Origin: Vermamoeba vermiformis
Taxonomy: Eukaryota
DNA length: 64,000 bases
Direction of reading: 5' to 3'
Assembly: GCA_045837725.1 (NCBI GenBank)
Contig: JBEWZL010000056.1
Location: 372,001-436,000, forward strand
Both the position numbers and the translations under genes were made by a program. Positions 8,199-57,692 of the stretch are shown here, in pieces (positions within the stretch are counted from its first letter, which is position 1; each line of letters opens with the position of its first letter). Under the pieces are notes generated by a model. That model was not told where the DNA came from. It searched no databases and saw only the letters and a program-made list of their open reading frames with translations.

Positions 8199-9955
8199 AT
8201 GAGCTCCATATTAGAGAAAATTGTTCAGCAGCGGCTGATTGATGTTCAAAAGGCCAAGGAAAACACTACCCTAGAACAGCTCAAGGCCAGATTGAATACT
8301 TTTACGCAGATTGACTTCTACGCCCGAATACAACGAGATGTAAATAATAAGGGCCTAGCAGTGATGGCAGAAGTAAAGCGCGCGTCTCCAAGCAAAGGTG
8401 ACATCGCTCCTCACATTGTAGCTGCGGATCAAGGTTTATCATACGCAACAGCAGGTAAATTGGGTCTCAAAATCATTAAAATAATATTATAAAATTATTA
8501 CATATTCCGGTTGAGTATTTCACTCGTTCTTTGGCTGATCTCACTTTTAGGGGCAACCGTTATTTCATGTTTGACGGAGCCTACTTGGTTCAAGGGCACA
8601 CTGCAAGACATGACTGATATTCGAACTGTTATTGAAAGTGTTGCGGATCGACCAGCTTTGTTGCGAAAAGATTTTATCGTAGACGAATATCAAATATACG
8701 AGGCTCGTGCGTGCGGTGCTGACTCGTTGTTGCTGATCGTCGCCGCGCTGTCACACCAACAGCTTGTGGTACGTAGTGCGAGTGCAGTCTTAGTGCTCGA
8801 GACTGACGACATTGTGCAGGACTATTTGCGGTGTGCGCGCAGTCTGGGCATGGAGCCCTTAGTCGAAGTGAACACGGACGACGAGATGCGTGTCGCGGTG
8901 GAGATTGGGGCTAAACTGATTGGCATCAACAACCGCAACTTGCACACCTTCACTGTGGACTTGAACACGACTGGAGACCTGTTGAAGACACTGCAGAACA
9001 TTCCACAAGACATTATCTTTGCTGCGCTTAGTGGCATCGTTGATCGCAAGGTACAGCAGTGCACTATTGTTTTATTAGCCTAATGCTCGCATAGGATGTG
9101 GAATTCTTTTCAAATATTGGCGTGCACGCTATTCTCGTTGGCGAGTCACTCATGCGAGCACAAGACCCAAAAGCCAAATTGAAAGAGTTGCGCGGCGATT
9201 ATGAACCCTTAGTGAAGATATGTGGCTTGACAGATGTCCATGAAGCACTCGAAGCTGTCAAATTTGGCGCAGATTTGATTGGTCTCATCTTCGCACCTCA
9301 ATCCAAGCGCAAAGTGTCCGTAGATGTAGCCAAACAAATCGTTGCAGCGGTGAAACAATTCCGTGGCGACGCTGGACAGGTCGGCGAGTTGTTGACATCG
9401 GAGTTAGTTGGCAAGGACAAGTTAATTGAGAGTTGGTTCAGTTGGCTAGCAAGTGCTGCGAAGTCACATCGCCCACTCGTTGTGGGTGTGTTTGCAGACC
9501 AATCTCTCGATGAAGTCAAGTCTCTGGCACAAGAGACAGGTGTAGATGTCATTCAGTTGTCAGGTGCTGAAGAGTGGTCGTTTATCCCGTCCTTATCCAA
9601 GCCTGTATTGCGCGCTGTACATGTCGCTCCAGCGGGTGACCCTGTGACCCTCGAGTCCTTGCCACTTCCAGACCGTCCAGTAGGTCTGTTACTCGACGCT
9701 GTTGATCCAAATTCCCCGCACTTGCGCGGTGGCACTGGTCAACAAATAGCTTGGGGTCGTGCTGCACCACTTGCTCGTGCTGTTCCCCTCGCTTTGGCCG
9801 GAGGACTCAAGTCAGCGAATGTGGCTGCAGCTGTGCGCACATTCCGCCCCCGCCTAGTCGATGTGGCATCGGGCGTGGAGATCAGTCCTGGCAAGAAAGA
9901 TCTAACACAAGTGCAACAGTTTATTCACAATGCTAAGCACGCGTTCGAGTCCTAA
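8199..9955 (+). CDS. trpCF: Bifunctional indole-3-glycerol-phosphate synthase / phosphoribosylanthranilate isomerase
   Basis: IGPS motifs AEVKRASPSKG, SCLTEPTWFKG, LRKDFI, LVEV, IGINNRNL, LVGESLMR. PRAI motifs VKICGL, LLLD, GGTG, LAGGL, VDVASGVE. Three short introns. Confidence 0.95.
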
Positions 9956-16117: not shown

Positions 16118-19100
16118 ATGCTTACAGAACTAGTAGATAAAGTATACGAGTTCAATTTATATCTCGCGAAGCTCCAAAAGAATGATCCGTCAGTTGATCA
16201 GCTCTCTTTTCGGATGGATTTCGTCCTTCAAGGCAATGATAATTGGCAGCAGAAAATAGCAAATGCACTCAAAGATAACACAAACGTAACCAGCTTAGAT
16301 TTGAGCAGGTAAGAATCGATCTATATGGTATTTTGATTAAATTGCATTTATTGAAATTACCGCCCGATTCAACTTGGGAGTACTAAATAATGAATTGTCA
16401 CAATTAAATGATGCATGGGCATATCGGACGTCATAGTAAAATTATTAGTGATTTCAGTGCCTATTTCGTGACACGAGACCAGATCAATAAAAATTCACCA
16501 AACCGTTGCAATTTTTTCAAGTCTCGCTTGGACTTGAACTAGCCATATGCAATATTATGGCCATATCGATATTAGTGATTTCACCGGAGTTTAGGCATTA
16601 TTATCGTACTAATAACTTGGTATATTTTTCAGAAATCCTAGCTTTGGCGATGAGGGGGCTAAAGAACTGACGCATGTGCTGCGCGATAACAAATACATCA
16701 CGAAAGTCAACTTGAGCGCGACGAAATTAGGCCACGAAGGCTGCGAGGCCTTGGCTGAAGCGTTGCGGACTAATGAAGCGATAACAGAGCTCAATATAAG
16801 TGAAAATCCCGGTACGTTAACTGCAGACTTGTTTATTTGCATTACACACTATAGCGTTAAATTGTGCCACATCCCAAGTGTGACACACACATCCGGACTC
16901 AGACTGTTGGTCTTAACTTCCCTCTTCTGATGAATATATTGCTTCGTAGATATGAAAGATGGATTGGACGCATTGTTGGACTCGTTAAAGTATAATAGGA
17001 CACTACGGACGCTCGATCTGTCCGGAGATCAGATCGGACCAAACAAAGTACGTGATATCGAAACATGGGATCAATTGACACGATTTTACGAGCTTATTCA
17101 TGAATTGATTCATTTCCGGAAATAGCACCATCCAGAAATAGCGCGGTGCACAAAACTTATTGTGCCACACATTTTGCTTTTATTTCCATATTTGTTGTGT
17201 TTCTAATAATACTTATCACAACTATCAATAGGTTGAAAAATTTGGAGCAGCTTTGCATGCCAATACAACACTACTCGAACTCAATCTTTCAAATAATGTT
17301 CTGAAAAGTGAGGGTGCAGAGGACTTTTTTGCCGTGCTGCGGTCACCAAATGTGCATTTGAAACACTTGGATGTGTCGCAGAACGAACTCGAGCCTGATT
17401 GCGTGAGTGCTGTTGCATCCGCTATTCGCGCTAATTCATCGCTCGAGTCGCTATCTATGCGTGGCAATCCAATTGGACATTGCTTAGCACCAATCATTAA
17501 GGCATTATCAAAGAATGGAACATTAAAGTAAGTTTATATCATTTAAATGGTTGTACATCGCGAAATTATTCCTAATTAGTACATGACGATTCCAAACACA
17601 ATCTTCCTCTGTTTTAATTTCTAATGAACCAAATGAACAGGAAACTAGACTTGAGCAGTACGGGTATTGGCCGCAAGGGCGAGTCCGAGTTTGCTCAGCT
17701 TTTGGAGAATCTAAAATTGCGTGCCCGAGACGCGAGTCGCGTCCAAGTGCTGGATGACTCGGAACCGGGCCAGCAATCACCAACCAACGTGCCTGATGAT
17801 AGTACATTGCAGAGTGGCGATGAGCGCAAACACGATAAGAAGCGCAAGAGCAGCAAACGGCGGATAGTGCAACAAGAAGATGACGACAACAGTTACAACA
17901 GTCACAATAGCGGCAAGAGCACGAGCAGCATGACTGATTTGCACATCTCCAAAGACAATAGATGTGCACTAGAAGAGCTTATATTAGCAAGAAACAATAT
18001 TGAGGGAATGCGATTGATTAGTGTAAGTTTCCAAATATGGAAATTATTGCAATATTCGGAATTTATACTAATCCAAAATAGGCTTTGAAAACAAATGAAA
18101 CGCTCACTGCGTTGAGTCTGGCGAGCAATCCACTATCACAAGACTCTTTTGATGCATTGTTGCAGTACGTATTAACTAAATTCCTTAAACGTATCACAAC
18201 TCATTCATTGTGTAGTCTCCTCCAAACGAGTCCTTATTTGAACTCGGTGGATTTGAGCGAAGTTGCACTGATCGGTGACAAAGAAGCCGTTCAGTTCGCA
18301 GACATGTTGAAGAACGAAGCGGTGACTATTTCAGGTCTCAGTCTGGCACGCACTCGCATTGAAGAGCGCGGCAGTCACACGCTGTTAGAGGCTGTGAAGA
18401 AGAACAAGACACTTATTTCACTCAACTTGAAGGGAGTGCGCATCAGTACCGAGGACCTCAAAGACATTACAAATTGGTTCGTGACTAGTCCCACGATGTT
18501 TATATTAGAAGTCGATCAAGATGACAAAAAAGGACTGTTACGAACAAAGAATTTGGAGCACTTGGGCTTGTCACGATTCCCTCCAGCCTTATTTAAGATG
18601 ACCAACTTGCAGCGACTGAACATCAGCAACAATCAAATCGTTGAAATTCCCGATGACATTGCACATTTGAAAGAACTCCGCGAACTCGATGTCAGCAACA
18701 ATAGATTGGTCGCACTACCTCCGGCACTAGGACAGTTGAAAGACACGCTCAAGTCACTGAGATTTCATAATAACCCGTTGAAAACTCCGCCAAGAGACAT
18801 TATTCACAAACCTGTGAAAATTATTTTGGGCTACTTGAAGGATCTTCAGGGCGGTTTTGAAGACATTTATCGTGTAAAAATGATGGTCGTTGGCCAAGAA
18901 AATGTCGGCAAAACAACTTTGTTGAAACTGCTCTCCAAGAAAGCACGAAAGAAGTATGTAACTCAATTTAACACTATTGCCAACATCGAATACTGACCAA
19001 TGTTTAGAATGCCTAAGAAACCTCGCGAAGAAGAGAAAGAGAACAAATCGAAGCCCATTGCCATGTTGCACAGCAAGAAAGGGCTTCGGAAATATCTGAG

Positions 19101-22100
19101 TACTGACGGCATTGATATCTCTGACGTGTAAGTTTGACGATAACTTCATGCGTGTTCATGTGTTAAAATATGCTATTGGACAGTACGTTAGAAGTCACGT
19201 TTGATGAAGACGGCAAAAAGGTCAAGAAGCCCGTGACAGTATCGACATGGGACTTTGCAGGCCAAGAGATCTACTACACAACACACGAGTTTTTTCTCTC
19301 GGATCATTCAGTGTTTCTACTTGTGTGGGATTTATCCAAGGACGAACAAGACAGTCGCGTGGCATTTTGGTTGAACTCAATTCACTCACGCGCCCCCAAT
19401 GCGCCGATCATACTCGTTGGCACTCATTTAGACGATCCTGTCTGTTTGCAAGAAGGCTACGTCGAGAACGTATTGAAGAAGTTAAAAGAAAAATACAAGC
19501 CTCGATTCCCGATGCTCAAACACGCCTTCGCTGTTAGTTGTGCGTGGAGCAATGCTGACGGCATGATTGCACTATTAGAGTCCATTCGAGTAACGATATC
19601 TGAAATGTCTATCATGGGCCAGTCTATTCCCAAGACGTAAGTGAGGTTGCTTTCATGACTTTGCAAACTAATCGTATCACAGGTACTTGGCTCTTGAGAA
19701 CGTGATTCGCGAAGAAAAACGCGTGTGTAATCCACCGTACAAAAGCTGGAAGACCTTCACGCAGATGGCATCTCTATGTAATATAAAAGGCGACGAGCTG
19801 AAACGCTGCGCAGAAGTACTTCACGCGATGGGTTCTATCGTGTGGTTTGACGACCCCAAACTTGGCCTCAACGACTTGGTCATTTTGGATTGTAAATATT
19901 TGACGAACATCTTTGCGACTATCATCACGACGAAACACAACTACATCAAGGACGGAATTTTGCCTCACTCTGTCTTGCGCGTAAGTTTTAAATCATTCAT
20001 CTTACTCGGCGTGCACTGACAGACTTACAGCACATTTGGAAACCTCCTCAATACCCCTTGGAAATTCACACTCAACTGCTGCAGTTACTCGAAAAGTTTG
20101 AAATCGCTTACCGGTTAGACCAGTCCAGTCTGCGAGGGCGAAGTTCAAGTTTCTCATTAGATGTGCCAGCAAAAGCACACTTCGCTCCTGGAGATCTCGA
20201 GTTCAGTCTAGTGCCCAGTCTGCTGCCGATTGAACGACCGAACATTGACGTTCTGTGGCGAAAGTACGACTTGTCTCAAGTGCAGTACGATCGTATCTAC
20301 GAGTTTGAATTCTTGCCCAAAGCGCTGTTCTCACGTCTTATGGTCCGATTGTTGTACTACGCCGACAAGATCCACAAGTACTGGCGCAAAGGACTCGTGG
20401 CCTCAGCTGACGACACGCTGTTCTTGCTCGAAATGTTCCCGACTAAGAACAGAATTCAAGTCACTGTGCGTGGAGGAAAGAACCCTGGTGCAGTGTTGAA
20501 GGACCTAATAGAAACCATTGAAGGCTTTATTGTTCTTACGAACTGGTGGCAGATCAATGTCACTCGTAAGATCACGTGTCCTCACTGCCTTCAAGAACTT
20601 GCCAGCCTCTACAACCCGCAAGAAAGTGACAGCGAGAGTGAATCAGTCTCGACGGTGTCACGGTCACTGAGAACTAGCTTTGACGAGTACTCATCGAAAG
20701 CGACCTTGCATCGATTCGATCGCAAGCAGAAAGAAAAAGAAAAGAAGAAGAGCAAGAACAAGCATAAGAAGCTCCCCAAGAAGACTAAACAACAGCGCCA
20801 CTCTATTTCTGTTACCGAGAATAGCAGCCAAGAACTTATCACAGCTTCTATCTCGAACTCCAATCCCGAGTTGTTCGAACCAACAGTGTTTGAACTGGCG
20901 GAATGTGAACGAGCAGCATCAGCTGGTGTTTGGTTCTTGCGCTGTCACGGCATTCACCCTGTGCGATTAGACGCTCTCGCACCGGACATTACCTTGTCAG
21001 ATCACGAGCGATTCAAAATTCCCTACGATGAATTGCACCTCGGCGAAGAGATTGGTACTGGTACTTATGGTAACATCAAGAAAGCCGAGTGGCAAGGCCA
21101 AATCGTTGCCGTGAAACAATTGAAGCGCGAAGAGGAAGGTCCAGGAGAGCGCGAGAAGGTGTTCAACGACTTCAGGCGCGAAGTGTGGATTATGAGCGGC
21201 ATCAAGCACCCTAATGTCGTCAATTTGATTGGCTTCTGTTTGCAGCCGCAGTTCTGTTTGATCATGGAGTTCTTGCCGTACGGTGATCTCTACTCGTTCA
21301 TTCACAACAAAGAACAAGTTCTCGATATGCCACGAGTGCTCAAGATTGCATTGGACATTGCATGTGGCATGCGACATCTACACTCTGCCACACCGCCATT
21401 CGTGCACCGTGATCTTAAGTCACCCAATATTTTGGTAAGTACATAGGCACGAAAGATGAAAACAATTATTAATTCTCTTGTAGATGGTGGACAGTGATCC
21501 TATGAAGCCTGTTATGGCGAAGGTCGGTGACTTCGGCCTCAGTTCGCGCATGTTTGTTCCTTACCTGCGCGAGACTATGCGCCATCGTCTCGTTGAAAAT
21601 CCAACGTGGTTAGCTCCGGAAATTACACGTGAGGAAGAATTCAACGAGAAATCTGACATCTACGCGTACGGCATCATCTTGTGGGAACTCTTGACGCGCA
21701 AACATCCTTTCGAAGATTGGGGCTTCAACTTCATGTTCGAGTTGGAAGACGCGGTCAAACTTGAGAAGAAACGACCTGACATTCCTTCTGATTGCCCTGA
21801 TGTGTTGTCCAAGCTAGTGCGTGACTGCTGGGAGGACGATCCAACTTTGCGCCCCTCGTTCACTGACATTATGGAGCTGTTGATCACCCTCGTCAAAGAG
21901 AAGTGCGCAAACAAGGTGACAATACCGCCAACTTACTACGTTGGCACGCGCTGGGAGAGTGGTACGTAATGTAAAGTGACCGCAAGGAATGCTGCTAACA
22001 ATTGGGGTAGAATTTGTGACTGAAGATGTGCATCGCACGCTTTCAACTACTCACGACAGTGCGCGAAGACGTGTGTCACGCACTAACTTGCAGTACAGCA

Positions 22101-23906
22101 ATAACAACATGGAGGACAATGAGTTTGGTAAGCCTCTATCTCTTTATTCACGCGACTGGTACTAACCACTAGCAGACCCTTCTCCTGCCTCACTCAAGCT
22201 GCAAGGCCGTTTCTTCAAGAAGCTGAAATGGTACAACCCTGACGTGGAGATTGTTGAGCTGCTGTCAGTGCCGGAGAACCAGATCTGGGCAGGTGGAAGT
22301 GACGGCTCCGTATCAATTTGGAACTCACTGAGCGGTGAACTTGTCGATCGTAACTACAACGTGCATCGCAACAGTCCAATCACGGCTATGATTACGATTG
22401 GCCAAGGCACAGTTGTTCCTCCAACGTCAATGACCCAGTTGACGCGTCACGCATCGAACACGCAAGTGACGACGCACAACACAGGTGTCTGCGTGTGGAC
22501 GTGTGGACAGCACGATGACAAGATCAATGTCTGGGCGGTACGACCACTCGAGCAACAGACCAATCTGTTGGTTACTTCGCAAAACATGATTGCTATGTTG
22601 TTCGTGAAGGTTGATGGTGCGAACAAGGACAAGTCGTGGAGACAACGCATCTGTCAGATCAAGGACAGACAGCTGCTGGTTCATGAGGCTGACAAGTTGT
22701 TACACGTACTTGAATTGGAGGGCAACAATCACGGTGTCGCTGATCCCTTCGCGCACGGTGAGAATTGCTTCTACTTGGACTCACCTGAACCAGCACGTTA
22801 TTACTTCCAAGTTCCGCATCAGGACAGCTTCCAGGACTGGCTCATGGTCTTGAAGGCCTGGCAAAAACCAACGTCGCTGGATGGCAACATGATCCGCCTA
22901 GCTTCCATTCAGAACACGCACACTGTCGGTCTTACATGCTTAGTGGAAGTGAGCGGACAAGTCTGGTCTGGTGACACGCGCGGCAACATCTGTGTCTGGG
23001 ATGTGAAGGTAAGTGCACATCATTGCTGACATCTGCTTCTAGAACGCTAACACTTTATTGTAGGAGCGACGGTTGCTGAAGCGATTGAAGTTGTTCCGTG
23101 AGGGTGAAGCAGACGTTCCATCATCCACCAAAGTCAGAACGATGCTGTACGCCAACATGTTCGTGTGGGTGGCTATCGAGAACTACTTGTATTGCATTGA
23201 CCCGATCCGCTATTCAATGGTCTCTACAGTCGTCATGCCGAGTGGTATCAACTGCATGATTGGCGTGAAGTTGGCAACCGGAAAGAAGCTGTGGGTAGCT
23301 CTCCAAGACAGCACGATCAAAGTGTTCGACATTGAAGAAGGGCTCAAGGAATATCGTCGCAAATACTCGATTGCCTCTGCTTCCACACCAATCATTGAAG
23401 TGCACGACGAATCGAAGCGCATGACAACACGTCTGGCCCTGGTCGACAAACACGGTGAAGAGAGCAGTCCTTCATTTGAGCACAAGGGCAACAACACCAA
23501 TCACAACAATGCGGGCAGTGACGCAGATGTGACGCCAGTGCGAAAGACATCACGCAAGCACCGTGAGATCGAGTCCAAACAACTGCGACGTCATCAACGC
23601 GCAGAGTTCCCGTGCATTAAGACAATGGGCCCTATTCCACTCATGGGCGTGCAAGACTTTGTAAATATTCAATCCAACTGGATCTGGTCTGCTGGTGACG
23701 ACGGAGTAATTCGCATTTGGAACGCATCGGTAAGTCTTTTGTCTATTCAGACTCAAGCATTTCATAGTCTAATCTCTGTATTGTAGACGTATGAAATGTT
23801 TGCTGTATTGGAGAAGAAGCACGATGGACCTATTACGATGATGATTCTTTGGGGCACAACTGTGTGGTCAGCGAGCAAAGGAGGCACGATCTGCATCTGG
23901 ACTTAA
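16118..23906 (+). CDS. Roco-family kinase: RNI-like LRR, LRR, Roc GTPase, COR, TKL kinase, WD40-like propeller with PH-like insertion
   Basis: Roc motifs GQENVGKTTL, STDGIDI, WDFAGQEIYYTTHEFFLS, LVGTHLD. COR LHAMGSIVWFDD and LFSRLMVRL. Kinase GTGTYG, VAVKQL, HRDLKSPNIL, DFGLS, WLAPE. WD-like C-terminus VWSGDTRGNICVWD and IWSAGDDGVIRIWN. Confidence 0.93.
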
Positions 23907-24121: not shown

Positions 24122-26588
24122 ATGGAGACCAAGTAGGTTCAGACCTATCACAAATATTCGTAAATTACGATTCAATTTTGAATTAAACAGCAGCTTCAAT
24201 TTTTACGATTATATTTTACCAAGTATATTTCAATCTAAACGGTTTAGTCGAATGCGATTAATGATTTTAATTTTTAATTTTTCAATTTTGTAGAGATCAA
24301 TCCCAGAACACTTCTGAGGAGGGCCAAAAATTGCAAAATATTGCTCAAAATAATGGGTCGGAAAATACAGTTGTATTAGAGCCGTCTAACGAAAAGAAGG
24401 AAAATGAGCAGAAATCCGCTACCGACACGACAGTTGAGAGTCCACAGAAATCGATTATGACTCCTAGTGAAGTCGTTGAAGCAACAAACGCGAATTCATC
24501 AAAAAAACTACTTTCAAATCGTCAGATCGCGAGCGTCATTGTCGAGATACTTAAAGATCATGGAGGATCGCTACCATTGGAACATATTGCCGAGGAATTC
24601 GCTAAAAAGACTCAAATACCATTGATTATGCTGGTTAGAATTAAATTAAAGGTAAGGGTAATTATTTTTCAGAGTCCGATCTCACATTTTGCAACAGACC
24701 TTCTTAGAGCGATTTCGTGAATTTGATGTTACCCAAGGCGTGGTTAAATTAGCACAACCTAAAGTCAATGCCGATCCCGCTATAACTCAACGCAAAGCAG
24801 AGCTCGTGGAGTGTTTGAAAAAATACCTCATGTCGTCAGATCCACCCATTCTGACGTTGAATTACATTAGCAAAATGTTCAAAGACGACAAGAAGATTCA
24901 CATTCGCGACTTTATCAAACAAAGCGTCAAAGTGTTTCTGAAAGGCGAAAGCGCAACATTTACAGTAATTGAAGGAGGAAACAACCGCGCAGCCGTCACG
25001 TTAGCGGAACTGGCACGTGACAAGCCTGACATGGTCACCGAGTTCATGAAGCGAATTACAGGCCCAGTGCGCGATGACGCCGACGACAAGGGCGATGGCA
25101 GCGATGAAATAGAGAACACTAATGCACCGTGGGACGAGCAACAACGTCACGCGTTTGACAGACTCTGCACGTGTGACATCAGCCGTAATTTTGATGTGAG
25201 AAATGTCGGCAAGAAAATCCTTAAAATTGGCGTTCAAGACGGGCACAGGTTCGTGCAAATATTGATGGAAAAGGCTTTGGAGAAACCTGCTCGTGCTCAT
25301 TTATTTGCAGCATTGTGCTCGTACTTGACAAAAGCCTTCCCAAGCGTAAGTAGAGGTTTAATACTTCGTTTGTTTGCTAAATTCTGCGATTCAGGAATTC
25401 AAAGCCAACTTGCTGGAAGCTGTGTGGCAAAACTTCAAGCGAGTTTTGGAGACCAGCAAAGAAGGAGAAGACGGACAGTGGTACGCGCTGTTCACGTTCA
25501 TCAAAGTACTGTTCAAGAAGAACTTCCTCAAAGCGACGACTGTGTTCAAAATAGTTGCACATTTGATCTATGCCGTGGAACATCCCAAGCCACATCACTT
25601 AGCTGTGCTATATCCGCTGTTTGACAGACAACCATTGCTCACTGAGCCGAAAATATTCGACGATTTGGCGCACACTCGTGGATCAGCAGTCGAATTTCAA
25701 CAGACCTTGCAACGCATCAGTGCTTTGGAAAAACTTTGCACGTTTAAACCAAATAACAACAATAATAATACAACCAAAGCCGAGGTAGAGAATACAGCTG
25801 ATGACGCAGAATCAGCTGACAACAAAGAAGTGAAGTCTGATGATGAAGAACAAGTGATTGACGAGAAGTCAGTGCCTCCTTCGACTCCGTTGTTAGACAG
25901 CGTGAACAACAATTTTGCTGCTGCGCCTTCATACCAAGGCACGGAATATCTATGGGTCAATACCCTAGTCTTATTCAAAGAGTTTGTCGAGGCCTTGAAT
26001 GGTCAACTGGTCCTCGCAGTCGACGCGCAGTTCAACAATGATGATTCTTTGGGTCTATTAACAGTAGGCACAGCTCAACGAGTATACATATTAGACATTA
26101 CATCCGGCGATGCAACTCTTGTTCAAGCCTTGTTTGGTCAATTGAAAACTACCTTTGAAGACGCGCGTGTCGTCAAAGTGATGCACGACAGCAGACCACT
26201 AGTGTCGCACTTGCAACTGACAAAAGGTGTTGCAATCAACAACATTTTTGACACGCAAATCAGTTACGAGCTGTTGAGACAAATGCAGCACGATAATCAG
26301 CACACAGAACAAGTCACACCTTACAGCGAGCCATTGGGCATGAATGGACTGTTTGAAAAGTTCTCGCTCGGCCCTAATGTCAACAAGACACTCATCTCGG
26401 TGCTCAATCGCTCTGAAAACACATTTTGGAATGTTAGACCGTTGAAGCTACCTGTTGTGGAGTATTTGGTCTTTAACGGCAAGAACTTGCTCAGCGCGTA
26501 CTTCAAGCTGATCCAGCAGTTAACGGTCGAATTCCATACCTCTATTTGGTTCATTAATCATGCTTATAGCAAACAATTGAAAAAATAA
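24122..26588 (+). CDS. Predicted RNA-binding protein: two winged-helix/LOTUS-like domains, MIF4G-like domain and a degenerate DEDDy 3'-5' exonuclease (EXD1/Egalitarian-like)
   Basis: ATG 24122 splices (GTAGGT..TAG 24293) in frame with ORFs 24331, 24689 and 25374. wHTH-like IVEILKDHGGSLPLEHIAEEFAKK..LKTFLERF. MIF4G-like LMEKALEKP..LFAALCSYL..FIKVLFKKNFL. Exonuclease VLAVDAQ, VKVMHDSR, NIFDTQI, WNVRPL..EYLVFN. Confidence 0.75.
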
Positions 26589-30626: not shown

Positions 30627-32162
30627 ATGGAGAATTTACCGCAAGAAATCCTGCGTGAAGTCGGCTTATTGCTCGATATTCACAACATTATCAATCTCAG
30701 TCACACCAGCAAGGCATTCAACGAGAACAAGTTGTGGACATTGTTGCTTCGAGAACAAGCGATCAAATTGCAACCACTGCTTGGCTCAGTGCAGCCTGGT
30801 CGATTGAACTGGAGAACACTGGCCTTGCACGCTCACCACACAGCAAATTATGTGTCGAGGAAGTTTGAGATGGGCCCACTGCAATTAGAACGGCTCTTGA
30901 GTGTACTGAGAGCGACACGGAGGCTGTTGGACCAGCAAAAGGCGAGAGAGACCATTCGCGGCCTGTTAAATAATGTTCCCGATATGGTAGTCACTTCTGG
31001 CTACAACGAAGGGAAGTGTTTGACGTACCGCGCACCAGTGCTGTATTGGATCTGCCACTGTCAGCCCGCACAACAAGAAGACAAGAAATTCATAGCAGAG
31101 ATAGCACTCGACGAGGTCTTGAAGAACACCGCTGCTGTTAATGTGCCATCACTTGCCACGCCTTGGCAAGGTGATTCAATTGACTGGCCAATCAACGCTG
31201 CCATCATGCGCCTGTGGACAGAAGGGGTCAAACGACTGCTGCAAGTTGAGAACATTGCGTTGGACGTGGTGTCAACAATGTCAACGGATTATCAGCGCGT
31301 TCGCGTCTCACCCTTGCAGTGCACCGTTCTCGCGGTGACAAATAGGAAGTTTCTTAAAGAGTCACAGAACCTCTCCCTCTATGATATACAAGCAGAGCAC
31401 GAGCACAGATTCGTGTCACAAGGAGTATACAAGACCATCAAACTAGCGGACAAAGTGATCCCAGCGCGAGAGCGAGGACTCGAAATACTCAAGCTGCTTT
31501 TGACACGTGTCAATCCAAATCAACCGAACGGAGCTATTACGAGCGTTGGAGAGGATAATTTGCTGGCCAAAGCCGAAAATATTGAAGAGCGTGGCTTTAC
31601 AGCACTGCACATGGCGTGTTATTATCAAGTGTTTGGCACGTGGGTCGATGGCACCAAAGCACTCATTGACGCTGGGGCCAATGTTAACGCAGAGTCAGCG
31701 GGATTGCATTTAACACCACTGCACATGTTGTTCGCGAATATTCAATACCTCAGCACGCGCTTTCGACACGAGTATTGGAGTGAAGAACTTGAAGTGTCAC
31801 AACTGCGACGAGTGGTGGAGCTGTTCCTCGCGCACGGTGCAGATCTGTCGCTGAGCACAACCGACGGCATGAATGTGCTACACTACGCACTCGTGGCACA
31901 CAAGCACCTGCCCTTCGACGAGTCCATCATCAGTCTGCTGCAACAACATTGTCCTCGTGCAGCAGCAGTGCCACTGCCCTGTTCAGTGTGCGTGCGGTGC
32001 AAGAAGCGCTACGACGTCAGTGCCAACAACAGCACCGCGTGTGCCATTCATACTGAAGCGTACGACGAGTGTAGTCCGTACACCACTGAGGGCTCTGACA
32101 CCTATCCTTGTTGTGGTGGCAAGGAGGACTCTCGTGGTTGTAGTTTGGCCTATCATCTGTAA
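30627..32162 (+). CDS. Intronless F-box / ankyrin-repeat protein with C-terminal CHORD/Btk-like Zn motif
   Basis: F-box MENLPQEILREVGLLLDIHNIINLSHTSKAF. Ankyrin repeats GFTALHMAC..LIDAGANVNA, LTPLHML..FLAHGADLS, GMNVLHYA. C-terminal CVRC..C..H..CCG....GC...H. Confidence 0.8.
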   Translation: MENLPQEILREVGLLLDIHNIINLSHTSKAFNENKLWTLLLREQAIKLQPLLGSVQPGRLNWRTLALHAHHTANYVSRKFEMGPLQLERLLSVLRATRRLLDQQKARETIRGLLNNVPDMVVTSGYNEGKCLTYRAPVLYWICHCQPAQQEDKKFIAEIALDEVLKNTAAVNVPSLATPWQGDSIDWPINAAIMRLWTEGVKRLLQVENIALDVVSTMSTDYQRVRVSPLQCTVLAVTNRKFLKESQNLSLYDIQAEHEHRFVSQGVYKTIKLADKVIPARERGLEILKLLLTRVNPNQPNGAITSVGEDNLLAKAENIEERGFTALHMACYYQVFGTWVDGTKALIDAGANVNAESAGLHLTPLHMLFANIQYLSTRFRHEYWSEELEVSQLRRVVELFLAHGADLSLSTTDGMNVLHYALVAHKHLPFDESIISLLQQHCPRAAAVPLPCSVCVRCKKRYDVSANNSTACAIHTEAYDECSPYTTEGSDTYPCCGGKEDSRGCSLAYHL

Positions 32163-55887: not shown

Positions 55888-57692
55888 ATGGATCTGCGTC
55901 GAAACCATTCCGTTTCTATCTTGGCCCCTCTTGAACTTCATGATTTATTAAAAGAAGGTACGATTTGGACCAGTTTTGTTGCGTTCTAACGCCATCTATT
56001 TAGAAATTCGTCAGCTGATCTACCCCAAGCAATTGCAAATACTGGGCGCTGATGATCGTGCCATTAGATTAGCTTTAGATGACGAATCATTATGGCTATT
56101 GGCTTCATATTGCCGTACAGCAGGTAAACTTAATTTCGAATATTCGTAAAAAATATGTAAATATTCTACAGTTAATTTATTATTTTTTCTGGCAACTATA
56201 TGAGTACTTCTATCATTTTATGATTTTTTTATGCTGTAATAAGCTTATGTTTATTTTTATCATTTTTGACAGACGCAATTCGCGTTAATATTGACTCGCC
56301 CTTTGTCGCTATGAATTGGAATCAGCTTAGATCTCACTTGGATACGATTCAATGGGACAGATATATCCCTAGAGCTTGGTCAGACAAGTCACCGATCGAG
56401 ATCCACACAGTCAGTAACGCATCTGTGCTTTATCACACAGGAGCTATTACAGAGCGAGTCAATCAATATTTCAATGACGCCTATCGTACAAAAAAGCTGA
56501 AAAACGAAGTACCAGTTCCGCGCTTATTCACACGCGTGCACAACAACAAAGTAATGTTTAGCGCTGAAGTCATGGACTCGATGCACATGCGATTCTCCAT
56601 GGACCCATTGGCAAGCAAAGACGCAAATATTGACGAGGCAAAGGACCGTCAAAGATTGCTCGCCATCAAAGCTCACCGCTCAGTTGCAGAAGAAGAGCCC
56701 GTGAAACTTGATGCAGTGGACTTGCCTAAGCCTGAAAACACCAAGTACGGCGTGTTCACACGCGATCCTATGCTGCTCACGTCAGACGAAGGATATTTGG
56801 TCAAACCAAAGTGGATGTCGATCGCGCCAATGCGCGAGACTACTGCTGCCGCTCTGTTAATGGAAACGCAATGGTCATTCTTACAGACCAATCTTGACGC
56901 GCAAAGTAACTCGGAAGCGAAGCACAACCGAGAAGAAGAAATCACAGTATGGGATCCGTTCTGCGGAAGTGGCACGTTCCTGCTCGAAGCTGCACAAATG
57001 TTCATTCGGTCACAGACATCTGGGTTGTTCCCACCTATTCACTTTGCAGAGAGGAGGATAGGATTTAAACATTGGCCCAGTTTCGATGAGAAAGCTTACA
57101 ACAGTTTTATTAACAAACGAAAACACGCTCTACAGGATCTGCTACTTAGCCGAAGAAACAATAGCCAAGTAGCGCTCTCAAAGAAGTTCACAGGTCCTAA
57201 ACTACGACTAGTCGGCAGTGACATTAACAAGTACTGCGTGGCCATGTCTCAGATCAACACACAGTCAATGAAAAAGATGGTTTGTTCGCACTTTGAAGGC
57301 GAGATGCGCGATCTAGTTTCCGAGTGGATGGACTCCAAGGTCAGCTTCGAGTACATTGCCTCCGATTTCCAATTCATCGATCGATATACTACATTCAACT
57401 GGCCTAAGACTCACATTATCGCGAATCCACCTTGGGGACACAGGCTTGGCGATTCATCGGTGAGTTTACAACCCTGACAGTCAAATCATCTAACCTATCC
57501 CTTTAGATGTTGCATAAAGTATTCCCTCGATTTATGCGGTTATTGAAGCAAAGAAAGGAGCTAAAAGAAGTGTTCATTGTCAACGGCTCGCAAGAATTGC
57601 ACCGAATGGATCCAGCGCATTTAAAATGGAAATCTGTGTTCAAATTCAGCTCGCGAGGCTTGCCTGTACAGTTATTAAAGTTACTCGTGTGA
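55888..57692 (+). CDS. THUMP-domain SAM-dependent RNA m2G methyltransferase (RlmL/UPF0020-like)
   Basis: APMRETTAAALL, WDPFCGSGTFLLEAA, LVGSDIN, IIANPPWGHRLG. Two upstream exons (MDLRRNHSV..LKEEIRQL..YCRTA) splice in frame. Confidence 0.85.

Follow-up and report, generated by a model that had tools for sequence, protein, structure and literature searches.

The subject of this work is a four-exon gene at 24122-26588 on the forward strand of a 64,000-nucleotide window of Vermamoeba vermiformis DNA (the whole stretch analysed here, positions 372,001 to 436,000 of contig JBEWZL010000056.1 in assembly GCA_045837725.1). Its spliced product of 736 amino acids carries a MIF4G domain, followed by a DEDDy exonuclease fold from which three of the four catalytic acidic residues are gone, and two units ahead of these domains are putative winged helices. 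On balance, we lean towards reading this product as a non-catalytic RNA-binding adaptor of the Egalitarian/EXD1 kind, in which the MIF4G domain would serve for the docking of a client protein. The coordinates of the gene parts, domains, and motifs are collected in Table 1.

The MIF4G and exonuclease parts are in one polypeptide produced from one spliced mRNA. All three intron joints are present in contigs of the public run X1, one contig per joint, where the identity of X1 as an RNA run is a guess and no X1 contig covers the entire gene; the contig reaches 48 nt on the shorter side of the joint 24132>24294 and 134 nt on the shorter side of the joint 25345>25395. In addition, the exon 2/3 and exon 3/4 junctions are crossed without a break by the orthologue P0004 (725 aa), in which 599 of 720 aligned residues are identical over the whole protein, with 82% identity over exon 4. 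The P0004 cluster contains four uninterrupted 725-aa open reading frames (ORFs) on contigs of 2238-2675 nt, and on genomic contigs of the same species (~364 kb) the gene is found in pieces of 219 aa and 391 aa, which correspond to exons 3 and 4. The short contigs are inferred to be mRNA-derived, and the whole protein would therefore come from one message. No upstream ATG lies within the 62 nt 5′ of the exon 1 start, P0004 also begins with ME, as does the product of exon 1, and an AATAAA is located ~22 nt downstream of the stop codon TAA. Raw RNA reads from X13 and X15, under the same species label (23 and 8 reads, respectively), are mostly 90-95% alike, mostly with partial overlap, and were not used. 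No paralogue of the gene was found within the window.

The more distant genomic orthologue L001 (77% identity) has introns at both internal positions. A tblastn segment had placed the MIF4G and exonuclease parts of L001 in a single open frame; this reading was ruled out by the translation, which at the position of intron 3 reveals an intron in frame that contains two stops. Separately, four members of the P0004 cluster (P0117, P0118, P0121, and P0123) represent the orthologue split into exon-sized ORFs by prokaryote-style gene calling on genomic metagenome contigs. The name of the exon-3 ORF, 'YeeX (DUF496 family)', looks spurious, and Pfam DUF496 gives only E 0.022 on three of six rows.

The C-terminal domain shows the fold of the DEDDy/RNase D family, as the first-pass annotation, made from the sequence of the window alone, had read from an EXD1/Egalitarian/RNase D pattern. 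Pfam DNA_pol_A_exo1 (PF01612) matches window exon 4 with 35.7 bits (P0003 residues 186-332) and the orthologue P0004 with 33.8 bits, both above the cut-off of 23.6. The fold tests were run on the AlphaFold model of P0004, an 83%-identical orthologue of the window protein, in which residues 510-725 have a predicted local distance difference test (pLDDT) score of about 85-96. Among solved structures searched by sequence with P0004, Egalitarian is the best match (9uju_C, 1.4e-11; 9rvy_D, 7.4e-11), followed by EXD1 (1.2e-4) and Rrp6 (5e-3 or weaker), and Nibbler gives no match at E<=1. Foldseek also places the Egalitarian chains first (7.8e-9), followed by T. brucei RNase D (2.7e-8), Rrp6 (about 1e-7), EXD1 (3.8e-7), and Nibbler (4.2e-7), and its solved matches, including E. 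coli RNase D, span E values from 8e-9 to 1e-6. The motifs around the old substrate groove, H-D..R, FDTQ, and W..RP, are retained. The protein ends 36 residues past ExoIII, and the P0004 model has a single further helix (706-724) after the ExoIII helix.

Within the viral library, the best Foldseek matches are from amoeba-infecting giant viruses, namely a medusavirus DEDDy exonuclease (4.2e-10) and Pandoravirus salinus S4W2Z7 (2.9e-9). This comparison was made on the exonuclease fold alone. We know of no MIF4G reported in the giant-virus exonuclease proteins.

The active site was examined in an alignment of 113 domains, consisting of 110 relatives, the window protein, and two orthologue rows. 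The canonical residues are D in 84 rows at the ExoI Asp column, E in 82 at the ExoI Glu column, D in 86 at the ExoII Asp column, Y in 79 at the ExoIII Tyr column, and D in 81 at the ExoIII Asp column, at which the window protein has D, Q, L, Y, and N, respectively. The window protein is therefore D-Q-L-Y-N compared to the canonical D-E-D-Y-D, with three of the four acidic residues gone. The replacement of these three acids had been claimed in the first-pass annotation through the motifs DAQ, HDSRPL, and YLVFN, which match exactly in both alignment and coordinates. P0004 has D-H-L-Y-N, and L001 has lost the same positions (Table 1). Because three of the four metal-binding acids are missing, the domain is predicted not to cut. 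Among the 113 rows, the full D-E-D-Y-D set is present in 59, gaps occur at these columns in 22, and no more than two acids remain in 21; only three of the 21 belong to the window clade, and the site has therefore been lost recurrently in the subfamily, beyond this one gene.

A nuclease that is still active through a non-canonical site, or active on another substrate, would be in line with the retention of the first ExoI Asp and the ExoIII Tyr and with an intact, conserved fold. However, we consider it hardly probable at all, given that all three orthologues have substitutions at three of the four metal ligands (Q or H for E, L for D, and N for D), that the ExoI Glu position varies between Q and H among them, and that a single Asp-to-Asn change of such a kind serves as an active-site mutant of human RRP6 according to the record of 3saf.

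Selection across the protein was estimated by the Nei-Gojobori method from the window protein and L001, as the ratio of nonsynonymous to synonymous substitution rates (dN/dS); the synonymous distance, about 1.25, is near saturation, so that the ratios are approximate. The ratio is 0.115 for the whole protein and 0.087 for the exonuclease domain, and even lower for the MIF4G domain (0.05). For the winged-helix-like units 1 and 2, it is 0.08 and 0.02, respectively, the latter being the most conserved part of the protein. The N-terminal tail (residues 1-75) is poorly conserved, with a ratio of 0.41, and the linker before the exonuclease domain shows a ratio of 0.33, with 19 of 52 residues identical to L001. 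This pattern has the signature of a maintained pseudo-enzyme whose folded domains would be carried on flexible linkers. Because the ratio of the exonuclease domain is low despite the lost catalytic residues, the domain is, as judged from the alignments, a maintained pseudo-enzyme, a structural member of the family that is not predicted to be enzyme-competent. As a side observation, a run of six Asn codons is located at 25752-25769, at the end of the MIF4G domain, and its length and composition differ among the orthologues.

An eIF4G-type MIF4G pattern had been noted earlier in the middle of the protein, and the Pfam searches confirm this identity, mainly via the orthologue. Pfam MIF4G (PF02854) matches P0004 residues 291-388 with 46.9 bits against a cut-off of 30.8, and the exon-4 half of the domain in the window alone gives 20.7 bits (E 3.9e-4). 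On the exon-3 orthologue rows, three of six match at E<=1 (best 0.0043), none of them the row of the window itself. The P0004 model has ten helices between residues 256 and 452, at pLDDT 50-66. In the ESM Atlas, the MIF4G region has a cluster at 0.91 in which 20% of the members carry MIF4G, which is taken as a lead only. On these sequence matches, the middle domain is assigned as MIF4G.

The nature of the two N-terminal units is addressed on the basis of profile comparisons, embedding neighbours, and low-confidence models, which point to LOTUS-like winged helices as a probable but weakly supported identity. For unit 2, WH_Egal (PF23713) is the only winged-helix Pfam family touching it (E 0.12, 13.4 bits, model positions 2-59 of 69), and this family appears at E<=1 in only two of the six exon-3 orthologue rows. 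A winged-helix profile was built from 40 units, which jackhmmer had gathered in 15 of the 110 exonuclease relatives, and hhalign aligned unit 1 to it end-to-end with a score of 18.0 (P 0.0014), which was reached by none of 30 column shuffles. Between unit 1 and unit 2, hhalign gives P 0.083. When each unit was searched by phmmer against solved structures, only chance-level matches were obtained (E 0.4 or above). In the ESM Atlas, all named neighbours of residues 60-215 are winged-helix families and all are below the 0.9 mark, with WHD_Egal at 0.85 and OST-HTH at 0.84, 0.78, and 0.77, in addition to WHD_TTC3 and WHD_eIF2D. The P0004 model of unit 1 reaches pLDDT 62-78 over the first 40 residues only, which comprise the first helices. 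For unit 2, a low-confidence model of exon 3 shows three consecutive helices followed by a beta hairpin, including helices at 27-45 and 69-82 and strands at 87-91 and 97-101, an order that agrees with a winged helix. The strong conservation of both units also counts in favour of this identity.

The full architecture is found in close relatives only, namely the P0004 cluster, P0131, P0132, P0133, and L001. This clade is narrow, with 75-99% identity; a search with exon 3 gives only three close relatives, P0131, P0132, and P0133 (99%, 86%, and 84% identity, respectively), a search with P0004 residues 55-470 gives only P0004 itself, and a metagenome scan gives one locus. A HMMER scan of exon 4 against 1.84 billion representatives yielded 111 proteins at E<=1e-3, of which only P0005, a fragment of P0004, is best aligned in the MIF4G part. 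The other 110 match by the exonuclease domain alone, their best stretches starting at query residue 131 or later. Pfam architectures were scanned for the 45 of these 110 relatives that are at least 400 aa long. DNA_pol_A_exo1 is present in all 45 and WH_Egal also in ten, an AAA/Spore_III_AA ATPase is present in five, and PUF, KH, PurA, or nucleotidyltransferase domains each occur in single proteins. MIF4G is not among the Pfam families listed (25 of 35) for these 45 proteins. One relative, P0009, has six WH_Egal stretches ahead of its exonuclease domain.

Some individual relatives show other arrangements. The best non-orthologous relative (E 3e-20) is P0006, a EukProt record of 554 aa with two tandem DNA_pol_A_exo1 stretches, and its aligned exonuclease stretch has an intact D-E-D-Y-D set. 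The joining of a DEDDy exonuclease to a Spore_III_AA/AAA-type ATPase is recurrent, with five cases in the 45 long relatives, P0014 and P0018 among them, and the N-terminus of P0014 gives a weak OST-HTH match.

None of the papers listed by the literature searches (supplements excluded) describes a MIF4G-exonuclease fusion. The first-pass annotation did not know the architecture from any described protein. This holds in part: the order of winged helices followed by an exonuclease-homology domain (ExoHD) is already published for Egalitarian, as described in PMC13186709. From the sequence comparisons, the MIF4G insertion appears to be the new part, unprecedented in what was searched and seen in a narrow clade only.

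Egalitarian provides the closest characterised example for a functional reading. As described in PMC13186709, it has three LOTUS-like winged-helix 'Egl domains' (EDs), an ExoHD, and an adjacent helical domain, connected by poorly conserved linkers, and these LOTUS-like domains, the ExoHD, and the helical domain form one pocket for binding double-stranded RNA. In the same account, the putative catalytic residues are ~15 Å from the RNA and dispensable. EXD1 recruits small RNAs via an inactive exonuclease-like domain, according to bioRxiv 10.1101/2025.08.03.668247. By analogy, the dead exonuclease fold of the window protein would hold RNA instead of cutting it, using the old substrate groove and the nearby surface, as in Egalitarian and EXD1. 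The two N-terminal units, if LOTUS-like, could add contacts with RNA or partners in the manner of the Egl domains. The MIF4G domain, placed between these units and the exonuclease fold on flexible, fast-evolving linkers, could dock another protein of RNA metabolism, for which the usual MIF4G clients, a DEAD-box helicase or a decay/translation factor, would be candidates. In this way, certain RNAs might be selected by the protein and linked to their transport, decay, or control of translation.

The Drosophila Egalitarian protein (Egl; PDB 9RVY-9RWB and 9UJU) resembles the window protein not only as the best solved match of the exonuclease domain, both by sequence and by Foldseek, but also in the order of the parts reported for it, that is, N-terminal winged-helix-type units (putative here) on flexible linkers, followed by a non-catalytic DEDDy fold. 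There are three EDs in the published Egl description compared to two putative units here, and Egl is without a MIF4G domain, which the window protein has. The regions of Egl that bind BicD and the dynein light chain have no obvious counterpart in the window protein, although no search aimed at them was made. EXD1 of Bombyx and mouse (PDB 5FIQ and 5FIS) shares the RNase D-like fold and a degenerate active site that is described as being used for RNA binding; however, it is a small protein (243-aa chains) without MIF4G and winged-helix units, and its match to the window protein is weaker than that of Egl. The window protein appears, as far as the sequence goes, to combine an Egalitarian-like order of parts, an EXD1-like dead site, and an order of helical repeat before exonuclease domain that is reminiscent of Nibbler. 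It is set apart from all three by its genuine MIF4G domain, by the lack of any domain after the ExoHD, and by the number of its putative winged helices, only two.

Several observations weigh against an RNA-binding adaptor. The function is drawn from domain families only, and some MIF4G domains bind no helicase. In a FastTree phylogeny of the 113 domains, the window clade sits on a long branch for which no neighbour is supported, the nearest row being at a path length of 2.9, and kinship with Egalitarian specifically, over RNase D-like domains generally, is not shown by the sequences. Moreover, the exonuclease domain has no overall basic character (18 K+R compared to 20 D+E). As to the N-terminal units, the 13.4 bits of WH_Egal on unit 2 are far under the cut-off of 27, Pfam OST-HTH (PF12872) gives no match at E<=10 on P0001, P0002, or P0004, the hhalign score of unit 2 against the winged-helix profile (10.9) is matched by five of 30 shuffles, and hmmsearch with the same profile gives 2.2 bits on the units compared to up to 8.8 for shuffles. 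The AlphaFold model of exon 3, made with five orthologue rows, has a mean pLDDT of 39.9 and is too poor for a fold search. The boundaries of the two units agree with those given by the first-pass annotation, but the LOTUS/wHTH fold that it assigned receives weak signals only, with no OST-HTH match and low pLDDT. Furthermore, Egl retains all five DEDDy residues (bioRxiv 10.1101/2025.08.03.668247), of which just two, the first Asp and the Tyr, are left in the window protein. A helical domain that contacts RNA (XAD/EHD) is also described after the ExoHD of Egl, whereas the window protein is without one.

The lack of net positive charge would also suit a protein-only scaffold or pseudo-enzyme regulator, in which the dead exonuclease fold and the MIF4G domain both act as protein-protein modules, for example inside or against a decay/deadenylation complex, and the exonuclease fold would not bind RNA directly. 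The strong purifying selection on a protein whose catalytic site is gone could be explained in the same terms. In addition, the ESM Atlas neighbours of the MIF4G region include clusters of the CAF1-binding MIF4G of CNOT1 (CNOT1_CAF1_bind, 0.87), again a lead only, and the MIF4G of CCR4-NOT is described as docking a DEDD nuclease (PMC3510486). The pairing of the CNOT1 MIF4G with CAF1/POP2 is similar to the window protein in that a MIF4G domain meets a nuclease fold of the DEDD superfamily, although CNOT1 and CAF1 are two proteins and not one, and CAF1, as a DEDDh enzyme, belongs to another subfamily. We consider a scaffold of this kind unlikely, though worth weighing, since the closest characterised relatives, Egalitarian and EXD1, are both reported to bind RNA via the exonuclease fold and since the conserved motifs around the old substrate groove are retained.

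A different role, that of a germ-granule-like adaptor in small-RNA silencing or translational control, which would recruit Vasa/eIF4A-type helicases via both LOTUS and MIF4G and be linked to Argonaute/PIWI, has its basis in family analogies. Extended LOTUS domains bind Vasa, a finding cited in PMC13186709, and EXD1 is reported to act in the piRNA pathway (bioRxiv 10.1101/2025.08.03.668247). Nibbler and MUT-7 join a HEAT-like N-terminal domain, which aids RNA binding, to an active DEDDy domain in small-RNA trimming (PMC11347159). Together with EXD3, they resemble the window protein in having a helical-repeat domain directly upstream of the DEDDy exonuclease domain (PMC11347159); however, they are active nucleases, whereas in the window protein the helical domain is a Pfam MIF4G, with a fast-evolving linker of 55 residues between it and the exonuclease fold. 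Given the weakly supported LOTUS identity and the narrow clade, which gives no hint of a conserved core factor in silencing, we regard this role as quite improbable. The first-pass annotation had proposed a coupling of RNA-end binding to helicase recruitment; of this proposal, non-catalytic RNA binding survives as the best reading, whereas the germ-granule, silencing, helicase, and Argonaute/PIWI parts come from family analogy only.

Pseudo-nucleases that serve as RNA-binding modules, such as Egalitarian, EXD1, and Exuperantia, have been described for the most part in the animal germline and in mRNA transport. The gene described here offers a clean, expressed, and strongly conserved pseudo-nuclease in a microbial eukaryote, with the active site lost in every orthologue seen and with an inserted MIF4G, a domain known for the docking of helicases and nucleases. 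A more specific form of the RNA-binding adaptor, which we put forward tentatively and hold to be rather unlikely as a whole, is a lineage-restricted fusion of an Egalitarian-type RNA-recognition module (LOTUS-like units and a permanently dead ExoHD) with a MIF4G domain, by which RNA selection and client recruitment would take place in cis. If true, and taken with the giant-virus relatives, such a fusion would make Egalitarian-like RNA adaptors far older, and far more modular, than animal mRNA transport, the system where they first came to light. If the protein binds both RNA and a helicase, it could provide a compact natural model for the coupling of RNA selection to remodelling, and the Egalitarian-type architecture would extend outside animals. 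If not, the gene would be an ordinary lineage-specific shuffle of domains among RNA-metabolism modules.

Table 1. Coordinates in the window of the exons, introns, domains, and motifs of the gene at 24122-26588.
Feature	Coordinates	Strand	Details and basis
Exon 1	24122..24132	+	ATG plus 8 nt; residues 1-3 and part of residue 4
Intron 1	24133..24293	+	161 nt, GT..AG; joint 24132>24294
Exon 2	24294..24651	+	N-terminal tail (residues 1-75), then first two thirds of winged-helix-like unit 1
Intron 2	24652..24697	+	46 nt, GT..AG; joint 24649>24696 (cut +2)
Exon 3	24698..25345	+	Translation, X1 joints, read-through of orthologue P0004
Intron 3	25346..25394	+	49 nt, GT..AG; inside MIF4G domain; joint 25345>25395
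Exon 4	25395..26588	+	Stop TAA at 26586-26588
Winged-helix-like unit 1 (putative; residues 76-143, spans intron 2)	24508..24757	+	hhalign against WH_Egal-like profile
Winged-helix-like unit 2 (putative; residues 154-227)	24788..25009	+	Pfam WH_Egal E 0.12
MIF4G / HEAT-like helical domain (residues about 270-461)	25136..25760	+	Pfam core 25241-25583, spans intron 3
Low-complexity acidic linker (residues 466-520)	25773..25937	+	pLDDT <50; dN/dS 0.33; follows Asn run
Exonuclease-homology domain (DEDDy/RNase D fold, residues 521-736), catalytically degenerate	25938..26585	+	Pfam PF01612, AlphaFold, Foldseek
ExoI motif DAQ (Asp retained, Glu to Gln)	26022..26030	+	Alignment; orthologues DAH (P0004), DAQ (L001)
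ExoII motif HDSRPL (catalytic Asp to Leu)	26184..26201	+	Alignment, including to Egalitarian; L001 HDSRAL
ExoIII motif YLVFN (Tyr retained, Asp to Asn)	26463..26477	+	Alignment; orthologues YLVYN

Other genes were observed on the forward strand of the window. Directly upstream, a multi-exon ROCO-type kinase occupies 18082-23786, in which leucine-rich repeats are located at 18082-18996, COR-A/COR-B and kinase parts at 19992-21446, and PH and beta-propeller-like parts at 22166-23786. Farther upstream, an open frame at 9095-9955 covers the last part of an IGPS domain together with the PRAI domain (E 3.4e-36) to which it is fused, and represents a tryptophan-biosynthesis gene. Short GT..AG introns mark the window as eukaryotic, and since animals lack tryptophan synthesis, this gene argues against an animal and makes a microbial eukaryote likely. 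On the downstream side, an ankyrin-repeat protein is encoded at 30627-32162 and an RMKL-like (UPF0020) methyltransferase domain at 56224-57477.

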